A DNA stretch of 64,000 nt from a virus (taxonomy: Duplodnaviria; Heunggongvirae; Uroviricota; Caudoviricetes). Below the pieces are notes generated by a model, which ran no database searches, was not told the origin of the DNA, and saw only the letters and a list, made by a program, of their open reading frames with translations. This document shows, one piece after another, positions 34,444-64,000 of the stretch; position 1 is the first letter of the stretch, and every line of letters starts with the position of its first letter. The position numbers were made by a program, and so were the translations under genes. The stretch is taken from IMG/VR virus record IMGVR_UViG_3300042898_001927. The stretch is one strand, 5' to 3'.

Positions 34444-35352
34444 TTAGTTCTGAAATAATATAGTACCCGAACCGGTAAAAGTATAAACAAAATTACTATT
34501 GACTGTAGACAATGATACCGTTCCAGTTACTACAGCTGGGTTGAATGTTATTGGATACCTTATAATAATTATACCAGATCCACCAGCTAGATTGTTGCCT
34601 CCTCCTCCCTGGCCGCCAGCGCCTCCTCCTGTGTTTGGATCTCCGGCTGTGGGAATGCCACCGGGGGCACTGCCCTCGCTGCCCCAACCGCCGCCACCTA
34701 ATGCTTTTGTAGTCTCGCCGCCACCTTGACCATTCGCCCTACCATACCCCCCACCGCCACCATAATAAAGGGCAGTACCTGAAATATCAAATTCTATGCC
34801 ATTCCATCCATCAGTTCCAGCGCCGCCGCCTCGGGCAGCTGAAAGGAAGTTACCACCGGTAAATCCAGATCCTCCAAATCCTCCCCATATACTACTTGGT
34901 TGTAACGCGGAACCGCCTACTCCGCCTGTACCGCCACCGCCACCGCCTGATCCTCCGTTAGAACCAGCTCCGCCGGCGGCAGCGCCACCGCGTCCGCCAC
35001 CCAATGCTTGAACAAGAACATCAGAATTTGAAGTCCTAACTAAACTACTATCACTGCCATTTGCACCTGCAGTTCCTGCACCTACAATCACAGTATAAAG
35101 GTCAACGTCAAAGCCCGATACAACATTTAAATTACCATAATATACACCACCTGCGCCACCACCACCGGTAACTCCTGTGACACTGCCGCCACCTGCTGCA
35201 ACTACAAGGCATTCGATTATAAATGGAGTTTTTGGCCAATTACTATCTTGTCTAGCTTGCAAAACTTCCCAAGGTTTCCATACACCCTGTGCTTCAGAAA
35301 GGCTAGGTACATATTCTGTTGTTTCTATAATATTTCTTGGGTTATTAGACAT
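34444..35352 (-). CDS. Glycine-rich repeat structural protein
   Basis: 302 aa with GGGxGG runs. The C-terminal GGSGIIIIRYP motif is shared with the other Gly-rich proteins here. Confidence 0.6.
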   Translation of the reverse strand: MSNNPRNIIETTEYVPSLSEAQGVWKPWEVLQARQDSNWPKTPFIIECLVVAAGGGSVTGVTGGGGAGGVYYGNLNVVSGFDVDLYTVIVGAGTAGANGSDSSLVRTSNSDVLVQALGGGRGGAAAGGAGSNGGSGGGGGGTGGVGGSALQPSSIWGGFGGSGFTGGNFLSAARGGGAGTDGWNGIEFDISGTALYYGGGGGYGRANGQGGGETTKALGGGGWGSEGSAPGGIPTAGDPNTGGGAGGQGGGGNNLAGGSGIIIIRYPITFNPAVVTGTVSLSTVNSNFVYTFTGSGTILFQN

Positions 35353-35354
35353 GA

Positions 35355-37091
35355 TTAAAACGTAATAGTTCCAGATTGAGTAAATGTGTAAACAGTAAAT
35401 TCACCTGATGTAGTAATAGTTGGACTACCTGTTACACTTAATGTTGCTACTCCTGTCAAATATCTAAAAATAACAATGCCCGATCCTCCTTGACCAGAAG
35501 TTCCTAATTCAGTTTCGGTATTCCAGCTTCCACCACCACCGCCACCGGTGTTAACGCTGCCGTTAGTCGGTGCCTGAACGACACCAAGATCATCTCCTCC
35601 ATCGCCGCCACCACCAAGTCCGCCGGCGCCACCGATGTCACGGGCAGCTCCGCCACCACCACCAGCATAAAATACTGCGCTACCAGTTATATCAATAGCT
35701 AATCCAATACCGCCAACTCCTCCAGTGTCGGCTGAGCCGTCTCCTTCGCCGCCACTACCGCCAGCGCCACCACCACCACCACCGGCACTGTCGTCATTTA
35801 CAGTTCCGCCACCATCAAACCCTTGACCAAGGGTTCCTAAACCTCCAACAGCATTGACAAATGCGTTTGCACCACCGCCGCCACCTGAACCTCCATTACT
35901 ACCAGTCCTAACACTTTGACCTGCGCCGCCGGCACCACCGCCTATGGCAGTAACTCCATTAAATGAACTGTTTGCTCCATTTGTGCCGTTAGCGCCATTA
36001 TCGACACCACCGTTGCCTCCAGCACCTACAATAATAGAGTATGTACCAGGCACTAAAATTTTGTCAGAATAGAGTAAGCCGCCAGCTCCTCCACCTGCAC
36101 TGTCGGACCCTCCGCCACCACCGGCTACTACTAACTGCTGTAATACAATATAATTCCCGCCGACTAAATCAATAGTGTTTGTGGCAGGAAAGGCCCGGCC
36201 TAGGCCCCAAATTATACGAACTGCACCTCCACCACCTGCACCACTGTTACTCGAGCTTCCGCCACCACCACCACCATAAAATCCACCTCCGCCGCCATTG
36301 CCAGATCTTGGATTGGCGCCGTTGGTTCCCCCCGAGCCGCCCCTGCCGAAGCCATTCGTTGTGGAATCATCAACCCCGGCTGCTCCGCTTGCGCCTTGAC
36401 CATAGATACCAACGCCTCCTCCGCCACCGCCGTTGCTGCCACTGTCACCGCCTCCTCCTCCGCCACCGCCGCTGCCCGCACTTCTCCAATTGCCGCCATT
36501 GCCCGAATATCCGCCCGCGCCGCCTCCCCCACCACCCATTTGGCCTCCACCTCGGCCGCCGTCGCCGCCGCCCTCTCCTACAAAAGTTCCGCCAAGTGCT
36601 TGAGGACCGTTAGGACCAGCACCGACAGCACCTGCGCCGCCGTTTGCTCTAACCACAGTAGAGTCTATAAAAAGACTATGTTCTCCAGCAATACCGTTTA
36701 CAAAGTTACCGCTTCGGCCAGCAGCCCCTGCTCCGACTACAACTGTGTAACTTTGTCCAGGCACTACCGTAATGTTATTTCGCCATGCAAGGGCTCCAGC
36801 ACCGCCACCGCGACCTGAAGAAACACCTGCGTCACCAGTTGAGCCACTACCGCCCCCACCTACGCACACTGCACATACTGAAAAAACTTTATTAGGCGCT
36901 GTCCATGTATAAGTCCCTGGTGTGGTAAATTCTACTTGTCCTACTTGGAGAGGATATCTCCAATATTCGGATCCAGAGTTTGTCTGCAGTCTAAGTTCAT
37001 TGGGAGAGAATATACCAGATTGATTATTAGAATTATTAAAATTAAGCAGGGGATTAGCCGCACTTACCATTCTATACTTAAACTTTGACAT
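35355..37091 (-). CDS. Glycine-rich domain structural protein
   Basis: 578 aa. It has the N-terminal YTWTAPNKVFSVCAVCVGGGG module, the internal AVRIIWGLGRAFPATNT motif and the C-terminal GGSGIVIFRY. It is a paralog of 48748..50481 and 52812..53666. Confidence 0.65.
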   Translation of the reverse strand: MSKFKYRMVSAANPLLNFNNSNNQSGIFSPNELRLQTNSGSEYWRYPLQVGQVEFTTPGTYTWTAPNKVFSVCAVCVGGGGSGSTGDAGVSSGRGGGAGALAWRNNITVVPGQSYTVVVGAGAAGRSGNFVNGIAGEHSLFIDSTVVRANGGAGAVGAGPNGPQALGGTFVGEGGGDGGRGGGQMGGGGGGAGGYSGNGGNWRSAGSGGGGGGGGDSGSNGGGGGGVGIYGQGASGAAGVDDSTTNGFGRGGSGGTNGANPRSGNGGGGGFYGGGGGGSSSNSGAGGGGAVRIIWGLGRAFPATNTIDLVGGNYIVLQQLVVAGGGGGSDSAGGGAGGLLYSDKILVPGTYSIIVGAGGNGGVDNGANGTNGANSSFNGVTAIGGGAGGAGQSVRTGSNGGSGGGGGANAFVNAVGGLGTLGQGFDGGGTVNDDSAGGGGGGAGGSGGEGDGSADTGGVGGIGLAIDITGSAVFYAGGGGGAARDIGGAGGLGGGGDGGDDLGVVQAPTNGSVNTGGGGGGSWNTETELGTSGQGGSGIVIFRYLTGVATLSVTGSPTITTSGEFTVYTFTQSGTITF

Positions 37092-37109: not shown

Positions 37110-37481
37110 TTAACTAATAATTTCAAATACTGCAATATAGTCTAATGAATCAGCAACCTGAGATGTAACAGCTATACTCTTATCTTCTGTTAGATACAAG
37201 AAGTTGCCCTTGTCAATTAACTGTAAACTAGCGTTTGCCGGAACGTAAATATCATAAGCTAGATAATAATTAGTGCCAAGCCCACTTGCACTAGTATTTA
37301 ATGCTACCCTAGTAGCCGCAACAGTATTAGTTACATTGGTAATAACAAGTGAGTTAACCTTAACTACCGAATTGCTGCTGGCTGCATTTATTACTAATAT
37401 GTTTGAAGAAATATTACTGGGCGATAATGCAGCATAACCTGCAACGATCGATGAAACATTTACAATATTTGGTGCTGCCAT
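37110..37481 (-). CDS. Small MAAPN-family protein (cassette paralog 1)
   Basis: 123 aa. MAAPNIVNV...NAASSN..VKVNSL is a paralog of 53668..54051, with weaker similarity to 55911..56246. Confidence 0.5.
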   Translation of the reverse strand: MAAPNIVNVSSIVAGYAALSPSNISSNILVINAASSNSVVKVNSLVITNVTNTVAATRVALNTSASGLGTNYYLAYDIYVPANASLQLIDKGNFLYLTEDKSIAVTSQVADSLDYIAVFEIIS

Positions 37482-37482
37482 T

Positions 37483-37758
37483 TTATCCTCCGAATACCAA
37501 TGCCATTGCTATGGCTTTTCCCGTAGTAACGCCACCTGCGCTACCTGTATAACCTATATTACCCTGATAACCTTGGCTACCGGTGTATCCGCCGGCTGGA
37601 CCACGACTACCTGTATAGCCTCTGCTGCCTGTATAACCGTCAGGGTCACCTTTGCTGCCTGTATAACCTTGACTGCCTGTATAGCCATCAGCAGGACCGG
37701 CACTACCAGTAAATCCTGTTAGATTAGAGCCCAGTATTGTTTTTACGCTAATGACCAT
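37483..37758 (-). CDS. Short collagen-like (GYTGSxG) repeat protein
   Basis: 91 aa with G-X-Y triplets (GYTGSQGYTGSKGDPDGYTGSRG...). Confidence 0.5.
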   Translation of the reverse strand: MVISVKTILGSNLTGFTGSAGPADGYTGSQGYTGSKGDPDGYTGSRGYTGSRGPAGGYTGSQGYQGNIGYTGSAGGVTTGKAIAMALVFGG

Positions 37759-37766: not shown

Positions 37767-38069
37767 TTAACTCCAGAATTGGTATATGATAGGTGTAGTG
37801 GTGTTAGAATAAACATCGCCAAACAATTCAACTTCTATTTGTTTATTAGGTTGAATAAACCCTTTCTCTAGGTATTTATCGTCATGTCTAGTGCCGATAT
37901 TTACTAACGACATCGGAGAACTGTTACGCATAAACACAGTCTTGCTATTTGTTACTAAATTGATAAAATTGTAGGAAGCAGAATTTTCACCTAGAACAAA
38001 TCGTGTAGATACAATGCTGCCACTCAAAGATTGTGTGGTCGTTTGTGTTCCTATGGATACGATTGCCAT
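37767..38069 (-). CDS. Hypothetical protein
   Basis: ORF track, 100 aa. It has an ATGA overlap with the upstream gene. Confidence 0.45.
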   Translation of the reverse strand: MAIVSIGTQTTTQSLSGSIVSTRFVLGENSASYNFINLVTNSKTVFMRNSSPMSLVNIGTRHDDKYLEKGFIQPNKQIEVELFGDVYSNTTTPIIYQFWS

Positions 38070-40171
38070 TATGCTTTGATCAACAATCTACCAGTTTGGC
38101 CGCCATTGACCGCAGTGGTATTATAGATGCCTGTAATGCAATTGATTCTGTTATCACTGGCTACTACAGTAGAGAATGTAGTAACTAGTCTGCTACCATT
38201 AGTGGTCATACCAGCTGCATATCCTAGTGGGTTAGTTGTAGTTCCAATGCTGGCCAGTGTTGCAATAGTAGAAATATTACCGCTGGTCACTTGTTGAGGA
38301 TAGTTAAATTGCACACGAGCAGCATAGCCCACTGTTGCAGATATCTGTCCTACTTTTCTTGGACTGATGATAAACGATCCACGTACTGCAACAATGTTTA
38401 AGTCACCCCGGTAATCTAAAGAGGCCGATTGATTTAAGTGAGAATGGCAGGCCGCCCCGGTTGCTGCTGTTGCAAATGTTGCTACGTTGGATGTTACTGT
38501 TAAATCGGTGTTTAGTTCATAAAGGTTTCCAGTGGCTGCAAATCCCACGGCTAGATAAATCCTTCCACTTGCATAATCAATGTAGAATGAAGTAGGACTA
38601 TCTGGAGTAACAGTGCTTGCACCGGTTACTCTTGGATTAACAACACCTGCTGTTTGTACACCGTCGTCTGCTGTAAATCTAGCAATACGCATTGTTTGAG
38701 AAGACAGCGTCCCACCTTGAGTTGCGACATATACGTTTCCTAGATAATCCGGAACAGGTTTTCCAAATCCACTAGCTACTGTTATAGGTGTTCCTAATGT
38801 ATAAACACCGGCATTGGTTGTAAAAGTCGATCTATTGACCATTGCTACTGTTGGTGTGGTGCTGGCAGTTCTCCTAACACAATAGACATACTTATTATCA
38901 ATTCCTAAATAAGAAACGTCGGCGATAGTGGACGACATATTAAGTACAGTGGAATTAAATGTTTCAGTGTCGATCTTAACTATGCCTGTATTGGTAGAAC
39001 CGTAAATTGTACGTTGTCCGTCAAACACAATATCCTGTACGCCGCCGGAGATACTGTATCGTAGAGTAGTTAATCCACCCTGGCCAGTACTCGTATCGTA
39101 AGTTCTAATACCGTCACTTGCTGCTAACCAGACGATACTACCGATGATAATAGGTGTAGAAAGAACTGCGGCCTGTGCTTGTCCAAATGTGTTTGTGCTC
39201 TTACCGGCTGCATAAGCTGCATCAACTTCACAGCCGCCATTCATTGGCATCAGTAAAAATTCTGTGCTTGTACCACTGGCGCTAGGCCATCCACCGGTGC
39301 TATCAGCAGTTACTAATGTGCTGTCCAAGAAACTACCAATAGATTTAGTAACACCTACATTGTAGGCACGGCCTACTGGCATACTCTTAGTAATGGCATC
39401 TGCTGCCACTGGGCTAACAATGGTCTTAGTAGGATCCCAACCGTAGGTTATGTTGAAATAAGAACCTAGGTGCAGTAAGTTGGTATCGGTACCGACTGTT
39501 ACTGTAGTAGATGGATAGCTCGGAGGAAACATTCCTCTGTTGGTGCTAGGTGCATATGTCCTAGCTGCGGCAGCTCCTGTTAGTCCGTCAGCAGTTTTTG
39601 GAAATGCCAGCATTACTTGACTGATTGTAGCAGTAGTAGCTTGACCCCACGGGGTACCGATCATGACAGAGCTAGTCCATGCAAAACAGGGGACATTAAG
39701 TGCAGCAGTGTCTTCTGATGCTACTCGTTCAAATTCAAATACCCCAGACCACAGTCCGCCTTCGTTTCTGATAAATGTCCATAATACGCAATGCCTTGCT
39801 GATCCTGAGATAATAATATAGCTGTCTTTTAAGTCATAATACTGTTCAAAGCCTCCAGCACCGCTCCATGTTTCATTAGTTGCAATATGCAGTGTATCGT
39901 TCCATGATTCACACGCAGATGTGTTAATAGCTAGTGTAATAGTGTTTATTCGAAACAACATATACTTGTAGGTAACTGTGTCTGCATTCAACACACGATA
40001 TACTTTTGTTATAATAGGAGAAAACGTTGTTGTTCCCACAGTGTCAAACAGCGACCATCCAATTGCAGCCATTGCATTATCAATTTGGGGAATGATGTTG
40101 GTAGATGATGTTTCGTTACTGATAGTAATTCTTATACTATTTGCGGTATAGGTTGATGTGGTTATTGACAT
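38069..40171 (-). CDS. Large Ser/Thr/Ala-rich structural protein (fibre/baseplate-associated?)
   Basis: 700 aa with beta-rich composition. It is preceded by a T4-type late promoter TATAAATA and an AGGA RBS. Confidence 0.55.
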   Translation of the reverse strand: MSITTSTYTANSIRITISNETSSTNIIPQIDNAMAAIGWSLFDTVGTTTFSPIITKVYRVLNADTVTYKYMLFRINTITLAINTSACESWNDTLHIATNETWSGAGGFEQYYDLKDSYIIISGSARHCVLWTFIRNEGGLWSGVFEFERVASEDTAALNVPCFAWTSSVMIGTPWGQATTATISQVMLAFPKTADGLTGAAAARTYAPSTNRGMFPPSYPSTTVTVGTDTNLLHLGSYFNITYGWDPTKTIVSPVAADAITKSMPVGRAYNVGVTKSIGSFLDSTLVTADSTGGWPSASGTSTEFLLMPMNGGCEVDAAYAAGKSTNTFGQAQAAVLSTPIIIGSIVWLAASDGIRTYDTSTGQGGLTTLRYSISGGVQDIVFDGQRTIYGSTNTGIVKIDTETFNSTVLNMSSTIADVSYLGIDNKYVYCVRRTASTTPTVAMVNRSTFTTNAGVYTLGTPITVASGFGKPVPDYLGNVYVATQGGTLSSQTMRIARFTADDGVQTAGVVNPRVTGASTVTPDSPTSFYIDYASGRIYLAVGFAATGNLYELNTDLTVTSNVATFATAATGAACHSHLNQSASLDYRGDLNIVAVRGSFIISPRKVGQISATVGYAARVQFNYPQQVTSGNISTIATLASIGTTTNPLGYAAGMTTNGSRLVTTFSTVVASDNRINCITGIYNTTAVNGGQTGRLLIKA

Positions 40172-40208: not shown

Positions 40209-40216
40209 TATTTATA
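40209..40216 (-). promoter_or_regulatory. T4-type late promoter (TATAAATA)
   Basis: On the minus strand it reads CAGTATAAATATAAG, about 38 nt upstream of the ATG at 40171. Confidence 0.6.
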
Positions 40217-41027
40217 CTGCGATGTACTGTACTTGTACATATAAATCTGTACCAGACCCTGTTCCCACGCCTGTTTGCAGCACATTGACAGTTAGGTAGT
40301 CTCCTGCAGAGAGAGCAGTAGTTGCTGTATTTGTAATTCCCGTAGTTTGCCCCGCCGGAATAGATAAAGAAACAGTAGGTGTTCCATTCTTTACTAGGCT
40401 TAATACGATATCTACAGATGAAGCTACTCTAACCCTAGGAACAATCTTGGTGATAGCAGCATTATATGGAGCATACCATCTTGCTACACCAAAGAAAGTT
40501 GTTAAATTTCCTGGCTGTTGCAGTGTAATAACATCAGCACCTTGACTACCTGTATAACCTGTTGGTCCGATAGGTCCTGTAGTAGATGTTACTTGCCAAG
40601 TGGATCCTGTATAGACAAATTCAAAGGTAGATCCTTTTAGATCTAGCAATACATTATCAGAGTAACCTTCTATAGTTGATCCGTTACGTATCACAGTTAC
40701 TGGATATAATGCTAGATCGTACCCGTCTGTAATCTGTATGTATTGACCCGCTGTAGGAGTATCAGGCAGTGTTATATTAAATGATCCGAATACAGTGTTG
40801 GCAATAATCCTATCACCATCTGTTGCTGTATAATCTTCTGTCTGTACTTGCCACGGATTAGTAGCACTGCCCGGTAATCCCCTGCTGCCCACGTATCCTG
40901 TACTTCCAGTATAGCCCACTGTGGTCGAAGTAGCCATCCAAAAATCACCTGTCCAGGTCCAGGTTCTATTACCGAATGTATAAGTTTGCCCTACGGTAGG
41001 CGATGTTGGAAAATTAACTGTTGTCAT
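40212..41027 (-). CDS. Collagen-like fibre protein with a conserved N-terminal NFP domain
   Basis: 271 aa. The N-terminus MTTVNFPTSPTVGQTYTFGNRTWTWTGDFW is a paralog of the N-terminus of 50485..52770, followed by GYTGS triplets. Confidence 0.6.
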   Translation of the reverse strand: MTTVNFPTSPTVGQTYTFGNRTWTWTGDFWMATSTTVGYTGSTGYVGSRGLPGSATNPWQVQTEDYTATDGDRIIANTVFGSFNITLPDTPTAGQYIQITDGYDLALYPVTVIRNGSTIEGYSDNVLLDLKGSTFEFVYTGSTWQVTSTTGPIGPTGYTGSQGADVITLQQPGNLTTFFGVARWYAPYNAAITKIVPRVRVASSVDIVLSLVKNGTPTVSLSIPAGQTTGITNTATTALSAGDYLTVNVLQTGVGTGSGTDLYVQVQYIAV

Positions 41028-52790: not shown

Positions 52791-52798
52791 TATTTATA
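52791..52798 (-). promoter_or_regulatory. T4-type late promoter (TATAAATA)
   Basis: On the minus strand it reads ACTATAAATATTG, about 21 nt upstream of the ATG at 52770. Confidence 0.6.
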
Positions 52799-52811: not shown

Positions 52812-53666
52812 TTAAAATGTGATACTACCTGAACTGTTGAATTGATAGTATCGGTAACCGCCAGATAGTGTGATTGTCGGGCTCCCTGTTGTGCTAGTTG
52901 CGGCATTGAATGCGTCTGAATAGCGAATAACTACAACTCCAGATCCACCAGCACCACCAGTATTACCAGCACTAGAACCACCTCCACCTCCACCACCGGT
53001 GTTCACTGTTCCTGCAATGCCATTTGCGCTAGTTCGGGCACCAGCACCACCACCGCCAATACCGCCTGTTCCTGCTGTTGCGGTTTCCCGTGTGCTTCCA
53101 CCACCCCCGCCAGCGTAGTAGTTACCGTCTACCCACTGTAATCCGGCCCCGCCATTACCTGCATTTTGGCCAGAGGCATTTGCGCCTACTGCGTTTGCGC
53201 CGCCACCACCGCCACCAGGATACCCGCTAGGAGAAAAGGCGCCGGCGCCACCGTTATTGCCTTGTCCTACTGTGCCAGCACCGCCGATACCATTGTAGCC
53301 GCCGCCGCCACCAGAGCCACCAGCGCCACCGTTCACGTCATGTGAACCGTAACCGCCACCTGTTGATGTTACTCCAAATGCACTTGAGTTATTACCGCTA
53401 GATCCGTTATTTGGCCACACGCCTCCAGCGCCACCTGATCCGACTGTGATTGTATATGTTTGTTGAATAACTGATGCAGTTCCCGATCGATATCCACCTG
53501 CACCGCCTCCTCCTCCGCCACCGCCACCTCCGCCACCGCCGGCTACCACTAGATATTCAACTGAAGAAAGAACCAGTAGTGGCCAGTTTGACCCCATTAA
53601 ACTATTGCGTACATCTAGTAATGACCAAATACCGCTAGCACTACCAGTGGATGGAAATTGAGCCAT
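52812..53666 (-). CDS. Glycine-rich domain structural protein
   Basis: 284 aa. It has EYLVVAGGGGGGGGGGGGAGG and the C-terminal GGSGVVVIRYS. Confidence 0.6.
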   Translation of the reverse strand: MAQFPSTGSASGIWSLLDVRNSLMGSNWPLLVLSSVEYLVVAGGGGGGGGGGGGGAGGYRSGTASVIQQTYTITVGSGGAGGVWPNNGSSGNNSSAFGVTSTGGGYGSHDVNGGAGGSGGGGGYNGIGGAGTVGQGNNGGAGAFSPSGYPGGGGGGANAVGANASGQNAGNGGAGLQWVDGNYYAGGGGGSTRETATAGTGGIGGGGAGARTSANGIAGTVNTGGGGGGGSSAGNTGGAGGSGVVVIRYSDAFNAATSTTGSPTITLSGGYRYYQFNSSGSITF

Positions 53667-53667: not shown

Positions 53668-54051
53668 TTAACTTATATCCTCATAACTACACGTTACAAT
53701 TAATGTGCTTGTTGTTCCTGCAGTTGCCCCCAAACTATTATTTTCTTCCAAATAATACTGTGTATTTTTTTGTATAACTGTTACTGTGCCTCCAGAAGGA
53801 ACTGTAACGTTACTTGCAATTGCAAATGCTGTTCCACCGACGTTGGCAGCATTATACCAAGCAACCGTAACGGCAGCTGTGTTAGGACCGTAATTAGCTA
53901 CGTTTAATGTATTAACCTTTAGGCACTTATTGCTACTAGCAGCATTACTCAACACCACCGTTGTTGCTGTAGTAGTCAGACTAGTACCTGTTGTTTTGCC
54001 ATTGATTGTTGTTGCGCCGATTAAGTTTGGTGCTGCCATATTATCCTCCAA
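53668..54051 (-). CDS. Small MAAPN-family protein (cassette paralog 2)
   Basis: 127 aa. MAAPNLIGATTI...SNAASSNKCLKVNTL is a paralog of 37110..37481. Confidence 0.5.
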   Translation of the reverse strand: MEDNMAAPNLIGATTINGKTTGTSLTTTATTVVLSNAASSNKCLKVNTLNVANYGPNTAAVTVAWYNAANVGGTAFAIASNVTVPSGGTVTVIQKNTQYYLEENNSLGATAGTTSTLIVTCSYEDIS

Positions 54052-55918: not shown

Positions 55919-56246
55919 TGCTTGTTTCTAATATACTTAGGATTAAATTTACACTGTTATTTGCACCTGCACTAGCAGTAACTGAAGAACCGGACTCTAA
56001 CACTAGCTTGCCCGTAGTAACTTCACATGCATCATTGACAGGAATTTCAAAATCTTTTAGCATGACAAAAGTAGTATCGTTTTTGATCAATGTAAATTTA
56101 ACGGTAACTGGATTATCACTAATATTATTGGCTTGTGCGCCCAGCACAATGGTGGTAAGATCTTCCGGAGTTGTGTATATAGTCTGTGTTGAAGTTGTCA
56201 ACTCAAACGCTTTAGTCTTAAACGAATTTAATGGTAATGTTGCCAT
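55911..56246 (-). CDS. Small protein, distant MAAPN-family member (cassette paralog 3)
   Basis: 111 aa. It occupies the same position relative to a collagen-like gene, with weak similarity (IVLGAQANNISDNPVTV). Confidence 0.45.
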   Translation of the reverse strand: MATLPLNSFKTKAFELTTSTQTIYTTPEDLTTIVLGAQANNISDNPVTVKFTLIKNDTTFVMLKDFEIPVNDACEVTTGKLVLESGSSVTASAGANNSVNLILSILETSNE

Positions 56247-56249: not shown

Positions 56250-59200
56250 TTATTTTCCAATTGCTAGTATGTACGGTGTCATGACTGCAAATAAACTTTT
56301 AGTAAAAGTTCTTCCAGATATTGTGCCTAGATTATTATTTATAACCAGCTCATTACCGATCCTAAAGTCACCTTGCTGGTCTGTTCCTGTGAAATAGACT
56401 TTTCCGCCATTAACCATAACAGCTTGATTTTCAGATATAGGCACACCGCCTAGCGACGGCAATGCTGAATTAATATTTGTGCCAGCACCAATCCATTCAA
56501 AGTTATGTGCCGAACTCTGTATCAAACTGTACTTGTGGAATGTTACTGTAGTATCATCTGCTATGATGTTTGCAATATTTTGTTGCAGTGTGATTGTACT
56601 AGAATAGGCGTTCTCTAGTATATTTGATACTATACCTACTAGACTTTGTGCTCTTGCTGACTCTGTAGATGTCACAGGATCTACGCTAAAATCTTGCGGA
56701 ACGACTGTTTGCAATGTAAGAGCTTCGGTTCCTAACAAACACTCGTCAATGATTGATTTAATAAAATCATACGCTGCTATAGTAAGTGCTTTTTCATTTT
56801 CAGGTATTCTAAATACAGCACCATCATAATATGCATCAGCTGCTTTGGCAGTTTGACTATTGCCCCCGTATAACATGTCATAGGTAACTGCATCGATAAC
56901 ATAGCCCACATCTCGTTTGCAAGTCGATGTGTTATATGTTACTCCAACAAATGTGTCATCAATGTAGGCAATTGTTTCAGCTTTGATAAACTCTCTGTTG
57001 GCCAACAACAGGTTAAATGCATTAACTGTAGAAGTTGTAGTGCTGGAAGTTAGACCAATTGGAATACGCAATGGTGCAACACTAGGACCATTGTTAATGA
57101 TATTAGTAATGATATTAATTACATTAGATATTAATGATACTTCAATAGTTGTTGCTGTGTTAGTGCTAGTTACCTGAGATACAATGTTTTGATATGTTGC
57201 TGTGCTAACAACACCTGTAACAATGTTTGCACTAAGAGTTTTGATAAAATTATAAGCAGCAGTTGTTTGAGGAATTTCAGTTGGAATGTTAATACTTCCG
57301 CTATCAAACTCATAGTAATAGACACCCATCATAAAACTTTGTCTATTACCGGTATGTAAGAAATCAAAAGCAACACTGTCTATAATGTAACCTATGTCTC
57401 TGTAATAGGTTGAGGTATTATAAACCAAAGAAGGATATGTTGAATTAATGTAACTGATAGTATCTTGTTGCAGAGATATTTTATCAGCTAATATTGCATT
57501 ATAAGAATCTACAATAGTAGATGTTGTACTAGCAATACTGTTTGGTTCAATTAAATCAGTTATTCCGTCTGTACCATAATTGACAACGTCGAGGATGTGC
57601 GCAAATAGATCTCCGATTCGAGTCACTGCATCTCCATCGCCGATTGGTGTTACTATAGACTCGATAGAATCTCTTAGATAAGCAAGAGCGCCGCTAAGAG
57701 GAACAAGTTCTGCTCCGATAGTACCAATATAGCCATCCTTGTTCCAATATTGCAGACCGGCAAACGTACTTTGACTTGTGCCCCCGTGCAACAGATCAAA
57801 AGCAATGCTATCAACAATTAGTCCAGTGTCTCTAGAACAGGTTGCAGTGTTGTATGAAAAATTAGGTTGTGCATAGGTTACAGTTTCTTCAGCAATAAAT
57901 GCCTTGTTTGCCTGTAATATTAAACCAGCATTTATTGTATTGTCGCTTGCGCCAGTTGGTGGATTAAATGCAAACGCAGCCGCAGCTTCGGTACCGTTTT
58001 CTAATATATCTAACAGTTCGTCAAACAGTGCTGAAATTCTAGTATAAGGAGTTGTAGCAGGAGTTAGTATTGCCAATACCCTAGTCTTTAAAAATGTAAT
58101 TGCAGCCAGTGTCTCTGTTAGTTGTTCATCAACAACTACTAAACTTGCTGCCCTATAGTAACTAGTACCTGCCATAACAGTTTGATAATTGGTGTTTAAC
58201 ACCATGTCATAGCAAACTGCATTTATAATAGTCGCAACATCTCTACTGCACTTAAACTGATTAAAATCAAATCCTGGATATTCTTCCAGTATATAATTAA
58301 TCGTTTCTACTTGTAATCTAGTCTTTTCGTCTAGAACATCTTGTCTAGCATTTCTTAATGCTGCATCTTCAGTGGTCAATGTGGGAAATACAATGTCAGT
58401 GCTGCCCGTTTTAAACGCTGTACTAGATGCCACAGTGTAGTATGTGCTAGTACTGTCCCCAAATTTAACTGCATCGCCTACATTAGGTTTTGTTGTTAAA
58501 TTGTCTAGTATAAATGTACGTCCTCGCTGTGCTCCAACTAGCTTTCCCGAATATTGACTAGGGCTCACTCCATCTGCATATAACGCATAATTACCAAAAC
58601 TACTATTACTGTTAGTAATAGAACAGAATCCCCCGGTTTCACATAAGAATCCCTTGTCACAGCAAATAGTGAATACAGAAACTAGTTGTGTATAACCTAA
58701 GTTAAGCATGTGAATACCAATACCACCTTGGTTATACTGGGTAAATGCATCAACAACCATGCTCTTTGTGCCCAATGCATGACTACCATCGACACGCATA
58801 CCGGTACCTGTGCTGGTCATTGACGTGCAGTTCTGTACATAAGGGCTAGTGGAAATAACACCAGCACTACCGTCTGGATTAAACGCAACTGCGGCTGCAG
58901 GGCTTACATGGTCCTTAAAGGTCATGTGTGCCAGATAGGATCCGTTATTAACATAGAATAAATCTTGTGTAGTGTTTGCTGGGCGAACAGTTACTGAACG
59001 AAGATTATCACCTATTACTGATACAAAATCTGGAACGGTTACGGGATTCGCTTCAGTATAATCACCGCTTTTAACCATGATTGTTGTACCGCGAGTGGCA
59101 ATTGCTAAAGCTGCTTTAATGGTGAGTTTTGAACTACCATAAGATGTTCCATTGTTAGCATCATTACCACTTTTGCTCACATACAGTACGTTTTGTACAG

Positions 59201-59408
59201 CAATGCCACCGACGGATCCTGCGTATCCAGTGCTACCTGTATAACCCCTTATGCCACCGTAGTCTAAATCGTTCCATTGAAGGGCACCGTTACCAATTTT
59301 AAATAAATTAGTATCAGTTTCAATACCCATTTCGGCTAGGGCTAGAATAGGGTTAACCGTGCTCCATTCTGTAGCTGTGCCCCGTCTAAATTGGATTTGA
59401 ATAGCCAT
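56250..59408 (-). CDS. Tail fibre/tailspike with the conserved N-terminal IQFRRG motif and a pectate-lyase-like beta-helix
   Basis: 1052 aa. The N-terminus is MAIQIQFRRGTATEWSTVNPILALAEMGIETDTNLFKIGNGALQWNDLDY. There is one GYTGSTGYAGS triplet stretch, then beta-helix rungs (MRVDGSHALG, GIGIHMLNLG). Confidence 0.7.
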   Translation of the reverse strand: MAIQIQFRRGTATEWSTVNPILALAEMGIETDTNLFKIGNGALQWNDLDYGGIRGYTGSTGYAGSVGGIAVQNVLYVSKSGNDANNGTSYGSSKLTIKAALAIATRGTTIMVKSGDYTEANPVTVPDFVSVIGDNLRSVTVRPANTTQDLFYVNNGSYLAHMTFKDHVSPAAAVAFNPDGSAGVISTSPYVQNCTSMTSTGTGMRVDGSHALGTKSMVVDAFTQYNQGGIGIHMLNLGYTQLVSVFTICCDKGFLCETGGFCSITNSNSSFGNYALYADGVSPSQYSGKLVGAQRGRTFILDNLTTKPNVGDAVKFGDSTSTYYTVASSTAFKTGSTDIVFPTLTTEDAALRNARQDVLDEKTRLQVETINYILEEYPGFDFNQFKCSRDVATIINAVCYDMVLNTNYQTVMAGTSYYRAASLVVVDEQLTETLAAITFLKTRVLAILTPATTPYTRISALFDELLDILENGTEAAAAFAFNPPTGASDNTINAGLILQANKAFIAEETVTYAQPNFSYNTATCSRDTGLIVDSIAFDLLHGGTSQSTFAGLQYWNKDGYIGTIGAELVPLSGALAYLRDSIESIVTPIGDGDAVTRIGDLFAHILDVVNYGTDGITDLIEPNSIASTTSTIVDSYNAILADKISLQQDTISYINSTYPSLVYNTSTYYRDIGYIIDSVAFDFLHTGNRQSFMMGVYYYEFDSGSINIPTEIPQTTAAYNFIKTLSANIVTGVVSTATYQNIVSQVTSTNTATTIEVSLISNVINIITNIINNGPSVAPLRIPIGLTSSTTTSTVNAFNLLLANREFIKAETIAYIDDTFVGVTYNTSTCKRDVGYVIDAVTYDMLYGGNSQTAKAADAYYDGAVFRIPENEKALTIAAYDFIKSIIDECLLGTEALTLQTVVPQDFSVDPVTSTESARAQSLVGIVSNILENAYSSTITLQQNIANIIADDTTVTFHKYSLIQSSAHNFEWIGAGTNINSALPSLGGVPISENQAVMVNGGKVYFTGTDQQGDFRIGNELVINNNLGTISGRTFTKSLFAVMTPYILAIGK

Positions 59409-59437: not shown

Positions 59438-62400
59438 TTAGCTGGAAACTCCGCCTGCGTCAATTGAGGTAATTCCACCATAATTTGAGTCAGGTTGCCC
59501 GCCATCTAAGTTTCCAAATGCGCCGCCGCCGCCGCCACCTGATATAGTGACTACAACGGCGCCTGCGCCACCTGATGCAGCAGATACACCGTCGCCTAAG
59601 AAGGTAATGCTGGTTACGGTGTTGGTTACCGTGGTCGTTTCATCTATAATCTTAATAGAAGACCCTGCGCCGGCGCTACCAGTAAATCCTAAAGATCCGG
59701 TAAATCCTGCACCTGCACTACCTGTATAACCTATTACACCTCGACTGCCAGTAAATCCTACACCTTGACTACCTGTAAATCCAGAGTTTCCCTGTGAGCC
59801 AGTAAATCCTGCTCCTTCACTCCCAGTAAATCCAGCAGACCCAGTATATCCATCTGCGCCAGCACTACCAGTAAATCCTGCACCTGCACTACCTGTGAAA
59901 CCAGTATCGCCTTTGCTACCATCGTATCCGTCTCGACCAATTAAGCCGTCCTGTCCTGCTGATCCAGTAAATCCAACTCCAGTACTACCAGTAAAACCTA
60001 GATCTCCCTGCGATCCTGTAAAGCCGGCACTACCAGTAAAGCCGCTGCCGGCTGAACCAGTAAATCCAACACCTTGGCTACCTGTATATCCTAAATCACC
60101 TCTGCTGCCAGCAAAGCCGGCACTACCAGTAAATCCTGCACCTGCACTACCAGTATAACCCAAGCTCCCGGAATATCCTCTGCTACCCACAAAACCAGCA
60201 CTACCACTAAATCCGGCACCTGCTGATCCTGTAAATCCTCTACTGCCAGAAAATCCTCTACTGCCTGAGAATCCGACTGAACCAGTTCTACCTGTGCTGC
60301 CTGCAAAACCTTGTGAGCCAGTAAATCCTCTACTTCCGGAATATCCCCTGCTTCCACTATAACCTAAACTACCGGTAAATCCTAAACTACCAGTAAATCC
60401 TCGACTTCCATTAAATCCCTGACTGCCTGAAAAGCCCCTACTGCCTGTGAAGCCAGCACCTGCACTGCCTGTAAAACCGACGCCGCGACTACCAGTATAT
60501 CCTAAAACTCTACCTACGCTGGTCCATGCTGATCCGGTCCATATCCATAAGAATCCAGTATCGGATGCAATATAACCATCACCTTTAACTCCGGTATAGC
60601 TAGGTGGTAAATTCAGTGATGACGATACTGTACCTACAATAACAACACTGCTACCCGGTGTTCCCTGAATACCTTGTGATCCAGTGTAACCTACTTCACC
60701 TCGACTACCTACAAATCCTGCACCTTGCGATCCTGTGAATCCTAAAGTACCCTGACTGCCCGTATATCCAGGAGTTGTACTTTGACTACCGGTGTAACCC
60801 TGACTACCTGTATAACCAATATCACCTAGGCTACCTGTAAATCCTGCCGAACCAGTATAGCCCAAGCTACCGCTGTAACCAATGCTACCGGTATATCCGA
60901 TAATTCGGCCTGCATCGGTCCATATAGTGCCTGTCCAGACCCACAAGTTTCCTGTGTCTTGTGCAATATATCCGTCGCCAACGAGTCCTGCGTAGCTAGG
61001 ATTTAAATTCGCGGCGGTACCAACTTGCCCAACAATTTTAACACTGGTACCTGCATCACCTTTGCTGCCAGTAAATCCTACACTACCATTAGTGCCGTTA
61101 GTACCTGCACTACCAGTGAATCCAACTACACCTTGCGTACCAGTGCTACCTGTACTACCAGTAAATCCAATTGGTCCCTGAGTACCAGTACTACCGGTGA
61201 AACCCCTGCTGCCAGTGTAGCCTTTACCTTCAGTAATAACTGGGGAAAATACGTTTAAGTCAAAAGTTGCAGTACTAGATTGAGGAACAAGGTCTGTTAT
61301 TGTAACAGTAAATGTAGCTGTACTAAATGATGCAGTTGGATTGCCGCTTAGTACACCTGTGCCGGTATTAAATGATAGCCCGTTCGGCAATAGAGTTGGA
61401 CTAATTGCATAACTCAGTGTTCCAAATCCCCCTGATCCGGTAACTGGAACAACGTCAACTGAATCGCCTTGGACTAATGACAATGGATTAACTGTGGCTG
61501 CTGCCGTTAATACCGGAGGAGCGTCGTCATTAACAGTAATTGTAATAGTCGCAGTTGATTGTTGATTTAAAGAGTCGCTTACTGTAACAGCATAGATTGA
61601 AGTAGGCGATGTTGCTGTAGGTGTTCCTGTAATTTGTCCAGATATAGAGTTGAAACTTAGACCAGCTGGCAATGATGGACTTATACTGTAGCTTAGTGTC
61701 CCAAACCCTACACTGCCTATAACAGGAATAAACGGTGTAACAACTTTATACTGTGTTAATACTGTTGTTGGAAAAGGTACTGTTGTTACAATAGCTCTAG
61801 GATTAACAGCAATAGAAACCTGTGTAGATGTAAACACAGACAGAGTGTCAGTTGCTGTAATTGTGTAGGCAGTGGCAGAACTTAATACCGTAGGAGTGCC
61901 ACTTAATACACCAGTAGAAGTATTATATAACAGTCCAGCTGGTAAAGTTGGACCAATTCTATATCTTAATGTACCATAGCCGCCGGATGCAAAGGCCAAT
62001 GTAACAGGTGTAATTGCTGTAGAAATTGTATAAGCCACTGACGATGTCGAAGCTGAGATCGTTAATGTAGGAGGCTCGTTAACAAATACTGTAAAACTAG
62101 AAGCAGTTGTACTGGCTACAGAATCTGTTACTGTAATTGTATAAGATGCAGTTGATGTAAAAGCAGTAGGTGTTCCACTGATAATACCAGTGCTGCTACT
62201 TAATGCCAAGCCATCAGGCAGTGCAGGTGACACACTATAATTGTACGGTGTTGATCCACCGCTGACTGCAACGGGCCTAACTGGAGTTATAGTTAACCCA
62301 TCAATAAAGGATAGATTAGTCGCAGTAGTAGTTGCAGTTAACGGTGGATTGTTTACTATCAAAGTAAACGGTGTACTGCTAGTTTGACCAAGACTATCAG

Positions 62401-64000
62401 TTGCAGATACTGTGAAAGTGCTGTTTGTTAATACTTGAGCAATGCCTGTTATCTTACCGTTAGTGGTTGAGAAACTCAATCCAGTTGGCAGTGCTGGATT
62501 AACAGCAAACGCAATACTACCAAAACCACCACTAGCACTTACAGGTGCGATATTTGCACTTGTTACTAATCTAACTAATGTAACAGTACTGACTACCTGT
62601 GTTGTAATCAATGCAGCAGGAGAATTAACTTCTAGATTGAATTGTCTGCTAACTATTTGACCTTGGCTGTCTGTTATGAATACAGAATAAAATGTACTTG
62701 CACTATTAACTATAGGAGTTCCGCTAACTAGTCCAGTAGAACTATTAATAGCCAACCCAGTCGGTAGTACAGGATTTATAGTGAATACATTTCCGCCGTA
62801 TCCGCCACTAGCAGTAACAGGAGTAAAAGGAGTTACTGCTACAGACCTAACTGCGATTAATGCACTTACAACTAGTGTAGAAGTAAATGCAGGCGGTATA
62901 ACACTTAATACAAATGTTTGAGTATTTCGTTGTGTTGCCTGATCACTTACTGTTACTGAATAAGTTGATGTAAAACTAAAACCAGTAGGTGTTCCGCTAA
63001 TGTTGCCATTGACTGTACTATAACTTAATCCGTTTGGCAACACTGGAGTAACTGCGTAGGCCAGTGTTCCAAAACCACCAGTTGCAGTTACTGGAGCGAA
63101 TGGTGTTGTTGCTACACCTTGATTTAAAGTAGATATTGCAACAGTAGTCGTTGTGACCAACAATGGTGGATCAATAACATTTAAACTAAATGATCTATCT
63201 ACTGTTTGAAATATTTGGTCAGAAACTGTTATGGTATAAGTTGCTGTAGAACTAGTTGTTGTAGGACTACCAAGAATCTGTCCAGTCTGTGTTAAGAAAG
63301 TTAAACCAGTTGGCAAACTAGGACTGATGCTATAGGTTAATATACCTCGACCACCAGTTGCTGTTACAGGAGTATAGCTTGATGAAACTTGATTTCTTAC
63401 CAGTGTAATAGACGAGATTACTACTGTTGCTGTAATAGCAGGCGGAGGTGGAGCGAGTGCAACAAATAAATTAAAAGACTTGCTGCTTGTTTGATTTATA
63501 GTATCTCTAGCAGTGACTGTAAAACTTGATGTGCTTAGACCAACAATTGGAAAACCTGATACTGCACCAGTTGAAGTATTGAATACTAAGTTATTAGGTA
63601 ATGCAGGGCTTACTGAATAAGCTATTGATCCTTGCCCACCACTAGCAGTAACTGGAATAAATGTAGTTGCTGTGGTAAACTGAGTTAACGCTGCACTAGG
63701 AACAGCCAACGTAGTAAACAACGGCGGATGTATTACTTCTAAATTAAAAGTCTGTGTACTCTGTTGACTTAAGGTGTCGGACACAGTAACTGCATAACTG
63801 CTTAGAGGTTGTATTACTGTAGGAGTTCCGCTTATAACACCTGTACCTGTGTTGAAAATTAATCCGGTACTTAATGCAGGATTTACTGCATATTGTAGTG
63901 TTCCAACTCCGCCACTGGCAGTAACAGGAGTACTAGTTTGTCCTGTTTTATTTAGAATAAAAGTAGTCGTACTTACTGCTAAGTTAGTAACAACAGCAGG
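59438..64000 (-). CDS. Giant fibre protein with ~14+ tandem Ig-like (~90 aa) repeats followed by a long collagen-like G-X-Y region (5' end beyond the window)
   Basis: The ORF track gives 59438..63784, but that start is a GTG (Val) inside the repeat. The same frame stays open to 64000 and still encodes the repeat (...TPVTASGGVGTLQYAVNPALSTGLIFNTGTGVISGTPT...). The repeat unit is ...PVTASGG.G...Y.V.P.LP.GL.FN..TG.ISGTPT....TY.VTV.D. The C-terminal ~600 aa are GFTGS/GYTGS triplets. Confidence 0.7.
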   Translation of the reverse strand, partial: PAVVTNLAVSTTTFILNKTGQTSTPVTASGGVGTLQYAVNPALSTGLIFNTGTGVISGTPTVIQPLSSYAVTVSDTLSQQSTQTFNLEVIHPPLFTTLAVPSAALTQFTTATTFIPVTASGGQGSIAYSVSPALPNNLVFNTSTGAVSGFPIVGLSTSSFTVTARDTINQTSSKSFNLFVALAPPPPAITATVVISSITLVRNQVSSSYTPVTATGGRGILTYSISPSLPTGLTFLTQTGQILGSPTTTSSTATYTITVSDQIFQTVDRSFSLNVIDPPLLVTTTTVAISTLNQGVATTPFAPVTATGGFGTLAYAVTPVLPNGLSYSTVNGNISGTPTGFSFTSTYSVTVSDQATQRNTQTFVLSVIPPAFTSTLVVSALIAVRSVAVTPFTPVTASGGYGGNVFTINPVLPTGLAINSSTGLVSGTPIVNSASTFYSVFITDSQGQIVSRQFNLEVNSPAALITTQVVSTVTLVRLVTSANIAPVSASGGFGSIAFAVNPALPTGLSFSTTNGKITGIAQVLTNSTFTVSATDSLGQTSSTPFTLIVNNPPLTATTTATNLSFIDGLTITPVRPVAVSGGSTPYNYSVSPALPDGLALSSSTGIISGTPTAFTSTASYTITVTDSVASTTASSFTVFVNEPPTLTISASTSSVAYTISTAITPVTLAFASGGYGTLRYRIGPTLPAGLLYNTSTGVLSGTPTVLSSATAYTITATDTLSVFTSTQVSIAVNPRAIVTTVPFPTTVLTQYKVVTPFIPVIGSVGFGTLSYSISPSLPAGLSFNSISGQITGTPTATSPTSIYAVTVSDSLNQQSTATITITVNDDAPPVLTAAATVNPLSLVQGDSVDVVPVTGSGGFGTLSYAISPTLLPNGLSFNTGTGVLSGNPTASFSTATFTVTITDLVPQSSTATFDLNVFSPVITEGKGYTGSRGFTGSTGTQGPIGFTGSTGSTGTQGVVGFTGSAGTNGTNGSVGFTGSKGDAGTSVKIVGQVGTAANLNPSYAGLVGDGYIAQDTGNLWVWTGTIWTDAGRIIGYTGSIGYSGSLGYTGSAGFTGSLGDIGYTGSQGYTGSQSTTPGYTGSQGTLGFTGSQGAGFVGSRGEVGYTGSQGIQGTPGSSVVIVGTVSSSLNLPPSYTGVKGDGYIASDTGFLWIWTGSAWTSVGRVLGYTGSRGVGFTGSAGAGFTGSRGFSGSQGFNGSRGFTGSLGFTGSLGYSGSRGYSGSRGFTGSQGFAGSTGRTGSVGFSGSRGFSGSRGFTGSAGAGFSGSAGFVGSRGYSGSLGYTGSAGAGFTGSAGFAGSRGDLGYTGSQGVGFTGSAGSGFTGSAGFTGSQGDLGFTGSTGVGFTGSAGQDGLIGRDGYDGSKGDTGFTGSAGAGFTGSAGADGYTGSAGFTGSEGAGFTGSQGNSGFTGSQGVGFTGSRGVIGYTGSAGAGFTGSLGFTGSAGAGSSIKIIDETTTVTNTVTSITFLGDGVSAASGGAGAVVVTISGGGGGGAFGNLDGGQPDSNYGGITSIDAGGVSS

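Follow-up and report, generated by a model that had tools for sequence, protein, structure and literature searches.

In T4-like phages from the sea and from fresh water, large and poorly annotated fibre clusters determine the host range, and the locus described here raises the question of how the many separately encoded parts of such a cluster are joined and exchanged. The virus record IMGVR_UViG_3300042898_001927 (Caudoviricetes) provides a 64,000-nt stretch of DNA, which we refer to as the window. From position 34,444 to its end at 64,000, this window carries a block of genes, every one of them on the minus strand, for collagen-like proteins, glycine-rich (Gly-rich) proteins and small proteins that begin with the residues MAAPN. 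An initial annotation, made from the sequence alone, listed the open reading frames (ORFs) of the block, all of which are present on the minus strand with the coordinates it gave, and saw in them three paralogous cassettes whose near-identical DNA repeats would drive domain shuffling and host-range variation. The modular fibre locus survives our analysis, with parts exchanged between phages; the three-cassette parse and the intragenomic mechanism do not. With a probability of roughly 0.65, the block is a late-transcribed host-recognition (tail-fibre) cluster of a T4-like, cyanophage-type myovirus, which encodes the parts of several multi-component fibres and uses the MAAPN protein as a connector.

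A conserved junction of shaft, MAAPN protein and tip

The unit that recurs in the block consists of a shaft protein with a hydrophobic C-terminal tail (..LVFGG), a MAAPN gene that starts exactly 1 nt later, and a Gly-rich tip gene, and it occurs twice. Unit 1 comprises a 625-amino-acid (aa) collagen-like shaft protein (54041..55918), MAAPN-1 (53668..54039) and a 284-aa tip protein (52812..53666). In unit 2, a minimal shaft of 91 aa (37483..37758), made up of a 14-aa N-terminus, 17 collagen triplets and the tail ..GKAIAMALVFGG, is followed 1 nt on by MAAPN-2 (37110..37481) and then by two tip proteins of 578 aa (35355..37091) and 302 aa (34444..35352). The genes for a 761-aa (50485..52770) and a 577-aa protein (48748..50481), which had been assigned to the cassette of MAAPN-1, form a separate unit with its own promoter and without MAAPN, and it is the 625-aa collagen protein that goes with MAAPN-1 and the 284-aa tip.

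MAAPN-1 and MAAPN-2 are paralogs of 123 aa that share 32% identity over their full length (E 4e-14). The ORF first listed for MAAPN-1 (54051..53668) exists, but its start has to be moved from TTG 54051 to ATG 54039, because all homologues, of which there are more than 960, begin MAAPN, which gives the protein of 123 aa. At the DNA level, 35 bp with 91% identity span the two shaft/MAAPN junctions and constitute the sole non-collagen DNA repeat in the block. The hydrophobic tail of the 625-aa shaft (..AAAVGYSLVFGG, coded by 54044-54079) is kept in relatives, and in both units the last shaft codons (TTT/TTC GGA GGA TAA; 54041-54055 and 37483-37497 on the minus strand) encode the ..FGG end of the tail together with the MAAPN Shine-Dalgarno sequence GGAGGA.

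A scan of IMG/VR yielded at least 583 MAAPN loci, 80 of which were kept for analysis of the junction. An upstream ORF with a hydrophobic tail lies no more than 19 nt from the MAAPN start in 67 of the 80 by regular expression and in four further loci with variants recognised by eye; in the background, 5/1232 other ORFs have such a tail. The upstream partners in metagenome relatives are 52, 142, 148, 555, 1058 or 1546 aa long and have unrelated sequences, and they always end in ..GYSL(V/I)FGG or ..AIAMA(L/M)IFGG. On the other side of MAAPN, the downstream proteins have related N-termini of the form M.(K/R)..GG(V/F)I(S/G) .. (S/A)SG(I/V)W .. NWP, and the two N-terminal motifs are found in 38/64 and 34/64 of them, compared with 16/412 and 24/412 in the background. 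The corresponding segments of the tip proteins in the window are ..SASGIWSL..NWP in the 284-aa protein, where it is a putative docking segment, ..SGIFSPNE.. in the 578-aa protein and ..AQGVWKPWE..NWP in the 302-aa protein. A programmed frameshift or readthrough joining shaft to MAAPN was considered and rejected, given that the gap varies across loci (1, 3, 10-19 nt) and the frame relation between the two genes is thus not conserved.

The triad is also present in cultured phages, namely in the Synechococcus phages Bellamy (gp38-41; ..ALSMVFG, then MAAPN) and S-SKS1 (SWZG_00008-10) and in the 61.5-kb phage DSL-LC04, where an upstream protein ending in ..SIAMAMIFGF is followed by a MAAPN protein annotated as 'putative lectin' and by a protein with two Gly_rich_2 domains. 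The annotation of the upstream DSL-LC04 protein as an 'intramolecular chaperone auto-processing domain' could not be reproduced with Pfam. Overall, the MAAPN family comprises about 1,800 protein clusters, in large and small phage genomes from several host phyla. Among its 150 best representatives 143 are stand-alone proteins and seven are longer, and MAAPN is N-terminal in all seven. One of these (P0471, 817 aa, found on two independent contigs) has the order MAAPN-Gly_rich_2-MAAPN-Gly_rich_2 and does not have the N-terminal tip motif; a 112-aa protein ending in ..KATALSIIFR is encoded 6 nt upstream. A second (P0466) is a fusion of MAAPN to LamG, four have additional beta-rich domains at the C-terminus, and the last consists of two MAAPN domains in tandem.

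In the structural model, MAAPN is a single jelly-roll whose invariant N-terminal arm is left unfolded in the monomer, and the nearest folds are those of structural turret and capsid cement proteins. Sequence searches of Pfam, PHROG, NCBIfam and the PDB (the last even at E up to 10) gave no match for the family.

Three MAAPN small proteins had been counted in the block; two are MAAPN paralogs in the strict sense, and the third, a small beta protein of 111 aa (55911..56246; phrog_1276 match), is a distant homologue that stands before a collagen gene. It has no pairwise similarity to MAAPN. An iterated search that starts from it arrives at MAAPN proteins, however, and hhalign aligns its family with the MAAPN alignment at 96.3% probability (E 1.8e-9), while six control proteins remain below 3%. 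These profile comparisons place the 111-aa protein in the MAAPN superfamily as a distant member. Its gene position differs from that of MAAPN: it starts 3 nt past the gene for a 1052-aa fibre protein and overlaps the following collagen shaft gene by 8 nt, an arrangement matched by the gene order in S-SKS1 (a 928-aa and then a 114-aa gene). The 100-, 120- and 140-aa proteins of the block were rejected as further MAAPN relatives (hhalign probability below 1% each).

Connector or chaperone

We propose that a fibre of this type would be assembled from three kinds of parts. The first would be a shaft protein of nearly any length or type (here collagen-like, 625 and 91 aa) with a short hydrophobic C-terminal tail (..GYSLVFGG or ..AIAMALVFGG); the second a 123-aa single jelly-roll with the invariant N-terminal MAAPN arm, presumably coupled in translation to the shaft gene 1 nt upstream; and the third one or more tips in which an N-terminal ..SASG(I/V)W..NWP segment precedes a Gly_rich_2 domain of tumour necrosis factor (TNF)-like/polyglycine type. 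In the virion, where we infer these proteins to reside, MAAPN would take the shaft tail and carry the tip, while variable loops displayed on the glycine lattice would bind to the surface of the host. Collagen tracts would set the length of the fibre and could be altered by triplet indels. Other genes of the block reuse the NFP/VGDRWF hairpin, Gly-rich, LamG and immunoglobulin (Ig)-like modules in different orders. Diversification would proceed mainly as phages swap shafts and tips with one another, with the conserved junction as the point of exchange.

That MAAPN is a structural connector seems to us somewhat better than an even bet. At 70-85% identity between unalignable flanks, MAAPN is far more conserved than its neighbours, which fits an internal joint and not a receptor-binding surface. 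The parts conserved along with it are the shaft's end and the tip's start, and the natural fusions of MAAPN to Gly_rich_2 and LamG domains support a structural role. Several observations nevertheless weigh against a connector. The MAAPN gene occupies the position of tail-fibre chaperones, directly downstream of a fibre gene, and the fusion of MAAPN to a tip could represent an intramolecular chaperone. Chromosomal adjacency explains some of the co-conservation without physical contact, and part of the ..FGG tail is under dual constraint, at the DNA level too, because the FGG codons double as the MAAPN Shine-Dalgarno sequence. Finally, the downstream proteins are glycine-rich in 36/76 cases, and a Gly-rich tip is one option and not the fixed partner of MAAPN.

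The strongest alternative, which we consider unlikely but well short of negligible, is that MAAPN is a non-structural assembly chaperone comparable to T4 gp38/gp57A, Mu/lambda Tfa or Pam3 gp25. Such a protein would bind the nascent shaft tail, aid trimerisation, for example by nucleating the collagen helix, and then leave, so that it would not be in the virion. The position of the MAAPN gene directly downstream of its potential client and its predicted translational coupling (a 1-nt gap after both shafts, and at most 19 nt in at least 71/80 loci) are what such a role would predict, as is the joint conservation of shaft tail and MAAPN. The 91-aa collagen protein also has no trimerisation domain of its own, and in Pam3 it is a small beta-sandwich domain that chaperones a Gly-rich fibre. 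Sequence searches, however, matched MAAPN to no chaperone family and to no PDB chain, and it is predicted to be a plain jelly-roll, nearest to turret and cement proteins, whereas Pam3 gp25 and Mu Tfa combine a beta-sandwich with a helical domain. In natural fusions, moreover, MAAPN shares its polypeptide with Gly-rich, LamG and other domains of binding type, and a shaft tail is still encoded upstream of them.

A broader version of the connector reading can be put forward tentatively. Here, the MAAPN jelly-roll, the shaft tail (..AIAMAIVFG / ..GYSLVFGG) and the tip segment (..GGVIS..SASGIW..NWP) would together form a widespread, undescribed 'plug-and-socket' joint that possibly links any shaft with any receptor-binding tip, be it polyglycine, LamG or other, and a MAAPN trimer would act as a C1q-like head in trans that nucleates and registers the collagen triple helix.

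Exchange between phages and variation within the locus

How does a locus of this kind diversify? Compared at the DNA level with 12 relatives, the window aligns around MAAPN only over the last 40-55 nt of the shaft gene and MAAPN itself. This island ends at the MAAPN stop codon in most relatives, and continues for 150-750 nt into the tip gene in L010 and L012. Other conserved DNA stretches are few, among them a 120-aa gene and, in L016, a glycosyltransferase gene; shafts and tips are otherwise unalignable, and gene content differs. The related phages are thus hypervariable and non-syntenic across the block outside these small islands. The sets of tips vary as well, with three consecutive tips of about 300 aa in L011, at least six in L014 and five tandem genes in L017. 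In the last case (L017 9268-15563), five tandem paralogs of 361-453 aa have an NFP N-domain fused directly to the Gly-rich domain, and four of them end in ..GGSG(I/L)V(I/V)I(R/G)YRYQ; this array is a set of alternative tips for which no separate shaft or MAAPN is needed. Similarity that is limited to islands is, as far as alignments can tell, a signature of modular exchange between genomes. In a further relative, the 27-kb contig L013, a gene series repeats with a 14.6-kb period (1-849 vs 14572-15495 onward), which reflects either an assembly concatemer or a true tandem duplication of a Gly-rich gene block.

The initial annotation instead envisaged a self-recombining engine, in which near-identical repeats within the genome would drive frequent domain shuffling or phase-like fibre variation. 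We regard this as improbable. Self-BLAST of the window did not reveal near-identical DNA repeats: the best reach 73% over 171 bp, 77% over 122 bp and 69% over 225 bp, and identities of at least 90% extend only over 35-42 bp, in all but one case within collagen tracts. In length and similarity, all of these repeats fall short of what efficient homologous recombination requires, and the Gly-rich paralogs do not align as DNA. Moreover, six metagenome contigs, assembled independently from different Joint Genome Institute (JGI) samples, match the window at 100% identity over up to 14.9 kb; one further contig is one base off, and rearrangements are seen in none of the seven. What speaks for such an engine are the collagen tracts themselves, with their 69-77% identity over 120-225 bp and short stretches of at least 90%, the 35 bp shared at 91% by the two MAAPN junctions, and a co-occurring variant. 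The latter, L004, is 99.7% identical (L004 2417-4258 vs window 54041-55918) and has lost, in frame, 36 nt (12 aa, TGSQGYDGSQGY) between TGSQG repeats of the collagen shaft; this 3.8-kb stretch has 9 mismatches, compared with 3 in the next 10 kb.

A diversity-generating retroelement, suggested by a Pfam Mtd_N match in the 1052-aa protein, was also considered and rejected. The match is confined to the N-terminal Mtd domain, and self-BLAST of the window gave no pair of template and variable repeats with a length of about 100 bp; no search was aimed at a reverse transcriptase. Two processes of variation appear to be visible in the alignments: collagen tracts change by triplet-scale slippage, and entire shafts and tips are probably swapped among phages, with the conserved joint as the point of exchange.

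Gly-rich tip domains

The Gly-rich domain belongs to Pfam Gly_rich_2 (PF21722), with scores of 52.9 to 126.3 bits against a gathering cut-off of 24.3 in five proteins (284, 577, 578, 302 and 2285 aa). We mapped nine such domains in these proteins, and they fall into two subtypes that correspond to the two end motifs recognised in the initial annotation. Type I domains end in GGSGxVxIRY, usually followed by a ..TGSPTIT..SGSITF tail, and type II domains end in AVRII.G..R..P..(N/D)T. The 284-aa tip of unit 1 has a single TNF-like/polyglycine domain and a C-terminal ..SGSITF beta tail. In unit 2, the 578-aa tip (PF21722 E 2e-30, two stretches) has a type II domain (aa 50-311, ending in AVRIIWGLGRAFPATNT) before a type I domain (aa 312-578), and the 302-aa tip has one type I domain (PF21722 E 7e-14). 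Outside the two units, the 577-aa protein carries domain D5 (aa 15-265) of type I and D6 (aa 266-577, ending in AVRIIYGRERLYPTTNT) of type II, again as two PF21722 stretches.

A confident AlphaFold2 (AF2) model was obtained for the domain (predicted local distance difference test score, pLDDT, 90.7), and the family profile matches Pam3 gp24 (E 7.5e-4). The fold agrees with those of the solved members Pam3 gp24, Bxb1 gp33 and the glycine-rich domain of ALK, and both close structural matches are tail-tip or fibre proteins. In Pam3, the domain of this type is the receptor-binding end of the fibre (PMC9608196). Among orthologous tips, variation sits between the glycine runs. Our literature search on PF21722 and on polyglycine II receptor-binding phage proteins found nothing relevant.

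It is very unlikely, and a shade more so than the self-recombining engine, that the Gly-rich and collagen proteins are not tail fibres at all but late products of another kind (capsid or neck whiskers, for example) or proteins that join the neighbouring glycosyltransferase in acting on the host surface. The jelly-roll relatives of MAAPN do include capsid cement and turret proteins, and a large glycosyltransferase/methyltransferase is syntenic with the unit; modification of the host surface has been proposed for such glycosyltransferases (PMC7029224). Against this stand the tail-tip and fibre proteins that are the close structural matches of the Gly-rich domain, the matches of neighbouring genes to tail fibre families, and the position of the cluster, which is probably where cyano- and pelagimyophages keep their fibre genes.

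That the repeats merely reflect low-complexity composition (Gly-rich, G-x-y) without true homology is refuted, even though composition-corrected or SEG-masked BLAST drops most Gly-rich matches: with phmmer, pairs of domains match with E down to 1e-35 against 0/180 for shuffled domains, Pfam cut-offs are passed, the non-glycine flanks (VEYLVVAGGG, GGSGVVIIRY, TGSPTIT..SGSITF) are conserved and the predicted fold is confident. The alignable modules reported initially are therefore real, and sequence comparison points to real homology among the Gly-rich domains. The choice of method matters here. BLASTP with composition correction concealed most of the Gly-rich paralogy, which was resolved by phmmer, which corrects for composition bias, together with the shuffled controls (n=180), and tblastn of a Gly-rich protein was defeated by low-complexity (SEG) masking, so that hidden Markov model (HMM) methods were used in its place.

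Collagen-like proteins and other genes of the block

The four collagen-like proteins of the block (2166, 625, 761 and 91 aa) contain 127, 96, 92 and 17 G-x-y triplets and 38, 26, 26 and 7 G(Y/F)TGS units, respectively, with runs of up to 44 triplets. Three of them are members of the Pfam family Collagen (PF01391), at 109-137 bits and E 1.3e-40, 8.8e-40 and 6.6e-32, which bears out the G-Y-T-G-S tracts described at the outset; the 91-aa protein falls under the cut-off (23.4 vs 27.2 bits) despite its 17 triplets. The tracts contain no proline or hydroxyproline and are rich in Tyr-Thr-Gly-Ser, and the formation of a triple helix is a prediction.

At the right-hand edge of the window lies the gene for the 2166-aa protein (59438..64000), whose C-terminal 1448 or more codons encode at least nine He_PIG Ig-like domains (Pfam He_PIG E 7e-68), followed by the collagen-like triplets and two GDGYI..WVWTG..W modules. 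The ORF had been listed as 1448 aa with a GTG start because it is cut by the window edge. It is still open at position 64000, so that the fibre block extends past the window, and identical contigs call a 2166-aa gene, which places further He_PIG repeats outside the window. It is followed by the gene for the 1052-aa tail-fibre-like protein (56250..59408), which has an Mtd_N-type N-terminus (Pfam Mtd_N E 4e-12), ends in ..YILAIGK and matches PHROG tail fibre families with E down to 1e-95.

The 625-aa shaft has, besides its triplets, a VGDRWF..QWV module at aa 565-589, which it shares with the 761-aa protein. In the latter, this module is internal (aa 259-283); the protein also has an NFP N-domain (aa 5-29), a GDGYI module, its collagen triplets and a C-terminal part free of repeats. 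Its N-domain is common to a 271-aa protein (E 1e-15), so that both modules of the initial annotation are present. By eye only, the NFP module (FP..P......G..W.W.G..W) and the VGDRWF..QWVE module, at 52666-52770, 51922-51996 and 54152-54226 on the minus strand, appear to be versions of one hairpin module, P..P..G(D/E).(W/F) .. W..(D/N)G..W.

Downstream of the 577-aa gene lie two paralogous genes (47899..48745; E 1e-12; phrog_7759) for proteins of 140 aa (48323-48745) and 120 aa (47899-48261). Such genes trail arrays of Gly-rich or LamG genes in every relative examined (L010 16869, L012 11267, L014 8554, L017 15611, L107 7684 and Bellamy gp34), and the 120-aa gene is itself one of the DNA islands conserved among relatives. 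A PDB sequence search with both proteins was empty. Judged by their position, they are candidates for the real fibre chaperones or assembly factors of the cluster. The adjacent gene encodes a 2285-aa mosaic protein (41037..47894), in which three Gly-rich domains (aa 85-375, 545-835 and 1325-1620; Gly_rich_2 E 2e-36) are interleaved with six LamG/ConA-like domains (Laminin_G_3 E 2e-107); its Gly-rich domains are nearest to those of the 284- and 578-aa proteins. The 271-aa protein (40212..41027) combines the NFP N-domain with short collagen tracts, and part of it matches phrog_972, 'tail fiber protein proximal subunit' (E 4e-8). Next to it are genes for proteins of 700 and 100 aa (37767..40171), for which Pfam, PHROG and PDB sequence searches were all empty; both are conserved with the relative L016, where the homologue of the 700-aa protein has 719 aa (E 5e-207).

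Directly after the last Gly-rich gene, a single 1122-aa protein (31041..34409) joins glycosyltransferase family 1 (GT1), GT2 and FkbM methyltransferase domains (Pfam). A homologue of 1123 aa (71% nt identity) has the same position next to the MAAPN-2 unit in L016 (10344-13715), though the Gly-rich genes there are unalignable. Collagen fibres that become glycosylated are exemplified by Bacillus BclA, and judging by its domains and place the enzyme could glycosylate the Thr/Ser-rich collagen fibres or could modify the host surface.

Predicted late promoters and transcription units

The T4-type late promoter core TATAAATA occurs four times on the coding strand of the block. Three copies are intergenic: at 52791..52798, in a 41-nt gap and 21 nt before the ATG of the 761-aa gene; at 48292-48299, in the 61-nt gap between the 140- and 120-aa genes; and at 40209..40216, 38 nt before the 700-aa gene. 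These are the three sites named in the initial annotation, which had taken them to be the only ones; the fourth (56336-56343) lies within the 3' end of the 1052-aa gene. Although the window as a whole contains 6 copies and 5.5 would be expected by chance, just three intergenic gaps of the block exceed 35 nt and each of these holds one copy, 21-38 nt ahead of the next ATG; by our own estimate about 0.012 copies would be expected in the 257 nt of intergenic DNA, so that these three sites are not due to chance. The site upstream of the 700-aa gene is kept upstream of the homologue in L016, and an ATAAATA motif is found at about -30 upstream of the 120-aa homologue in 4/5 relatives. The placement is that of T4-type late promoter cores, and their use in transcription is predicted.

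Spacing between genes is -8 to +9 nt, apart from spacers of 18, 29 and 34 nt and the three promoter gaps of 40-61 nt, which suggests translational coupling within at least four putative late transcription units. These units probably end at a strong terminator-like hairpin (30603-30628, minus strand; 11-bp stem, AAAAAAGGACCC.., then a T-rich run) located right after a 134-aa gene. Scans of the block for sigma-70 promoters and intrinsic terminators were at or near chance; one of two stretches had 46 promoter-like sites compared with 31.9 in shuffles (sd 6.0), none of them outstanding.

The source phage

The left part of the window carries rIIA, rIIB, NrdA and NrdB genes and, together with the cyanomyovirus fibre matches, identifies the source phage as T4-like (Tevenvirinae-type). 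It also carries a PstS-like phosphate-binding gene (12846-13850, minus strand; phrog_5385, E 3e-61); PstS is an auxiliary metabolic gene typical of cyanophages and not a T4 marker. The best relatives of the 1052-aa fibre-like protein are in Synechococcus and Prochlorococcus myoviruses (30-54% identity, tblastn), where the matches land on tail fibre and baseplate wedge genes. From these similarities the source is most likely a cyanophage. A scan of bacterial and archaeal genomes returned seven matches only, all on contigs of metagenome-assembled genomes (MAGs), and gave no host assignment, and the window contains no tRNAs. A megablast search of the 22-kb core against 50,697 phage genomes gave zero matches, so that the phage has no close cultured relative at the DNA level; the identical contigs from different JGI samples show that it is a real and recurrent environmental T4-like phage. 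Elsewhere in the window, a 40-bp near-perfect palindrome (90%) at 25027-25066 covers the start of a 230-aa gene (24346-25038) and reaches into the gap before a 112-aa gene (25071-25409).

Comparison with known systems

In cyano- and pelagimyophages, a hypervariable 'host recognition cluster' of 34-45 kb, situated between VrlC and the neck gene gp14, combines fibre genes and collagen repeats with ConA/LamG domains, Mtd domains and glycosyltransferases (PMC7029224, Zaragoza-Solas et al. 2020), and collagen-like fibre candidates were noted in P-SSM2 in 2005 (PMC1079782, Sullivan et al. 2005). The block described here has the same content by Pfam (Collagen, Laminin_G_3, Mtd_N, Glycos_transf_1/2) and by PHROG tail fibre families, and it resembles that cluster in occupying about 30 kb or more of a T4-like genome, in its several fibre-like genes and in its poor synteny among relatives. 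The host recognition cluster has been described by domain content, whereas we found no mention there of a junction of shaft tail, jelly-roll and tip or of Gly_rich_2 arrays, and neither the domain libraries nor the literature that we searched contained this joint. The type of locus has thus been described already and much of our finding is ordinary in that sense, and what seems new is the connector rule. With a conserved joint of three parts, fibre clusters could be parsed by rule into shafts, connectors and tips, the exchange of tips among otherwise unrelated phages would be explained, and receptor-binding proteins could be engineered with a docking system that nature already supplies. The MAAPN family, which is missing from Pfam, PHROGs, NCBIfam and the PDB, would also gain a role that can be tested.

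Of the systems with known structures, Pam3 gp24 and gp25 (PDB 7YFW/7YPX; PMC9608196) differ in that gp24 has its own helical baseplate-docking domain and in that the partly helical chaperone gp25 is encoded downstream, whereas in the present locus the tip is separate and the accessory protein, a plain jelly-roll without similarity to gp25, is encoded upstream of it. The 'tail wing brush' gp33 and tail spike gp29 of Bxb1 (PDB 9D93) come from a siphovirus with an actinobacterial host. The Gly-rich tip is, then, a member of a structurally known family. To our knowledge, Bxb1 has neither a collagen shaft nor a MAAPN-type partner. In the C1q/TNF family and in Bacillus BclA, collagen and a trimeric jelly-roll head are parts of one polypeptide; here, the head would come in trans and be joined via a short hydrophobic tail, and the likeness is one of general fold only. 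A parallel in organisation is offered by the T-even long tail fibres of T2/S16-type phages, such as Salmonella phage S16 (PDB 6F45; cited in PMC9608196), in which a separate adhesin, the polyglycine-II sandwich protein gp38, caps the trimeric gp37 shaft and in which tip exchange alters host range. S16 gp38 is not among the best 50-60 matches listed in our fold searches. Both systems nevertheless encode a glycine-rich adhesin separately from the shaft, with conserved glycine motifs around hypervariable loops, and they differ at the joint itself: gp38 binds gp37 directly, whereas the present locus encodes a third, conserved jelly-roll between shaft and tip.

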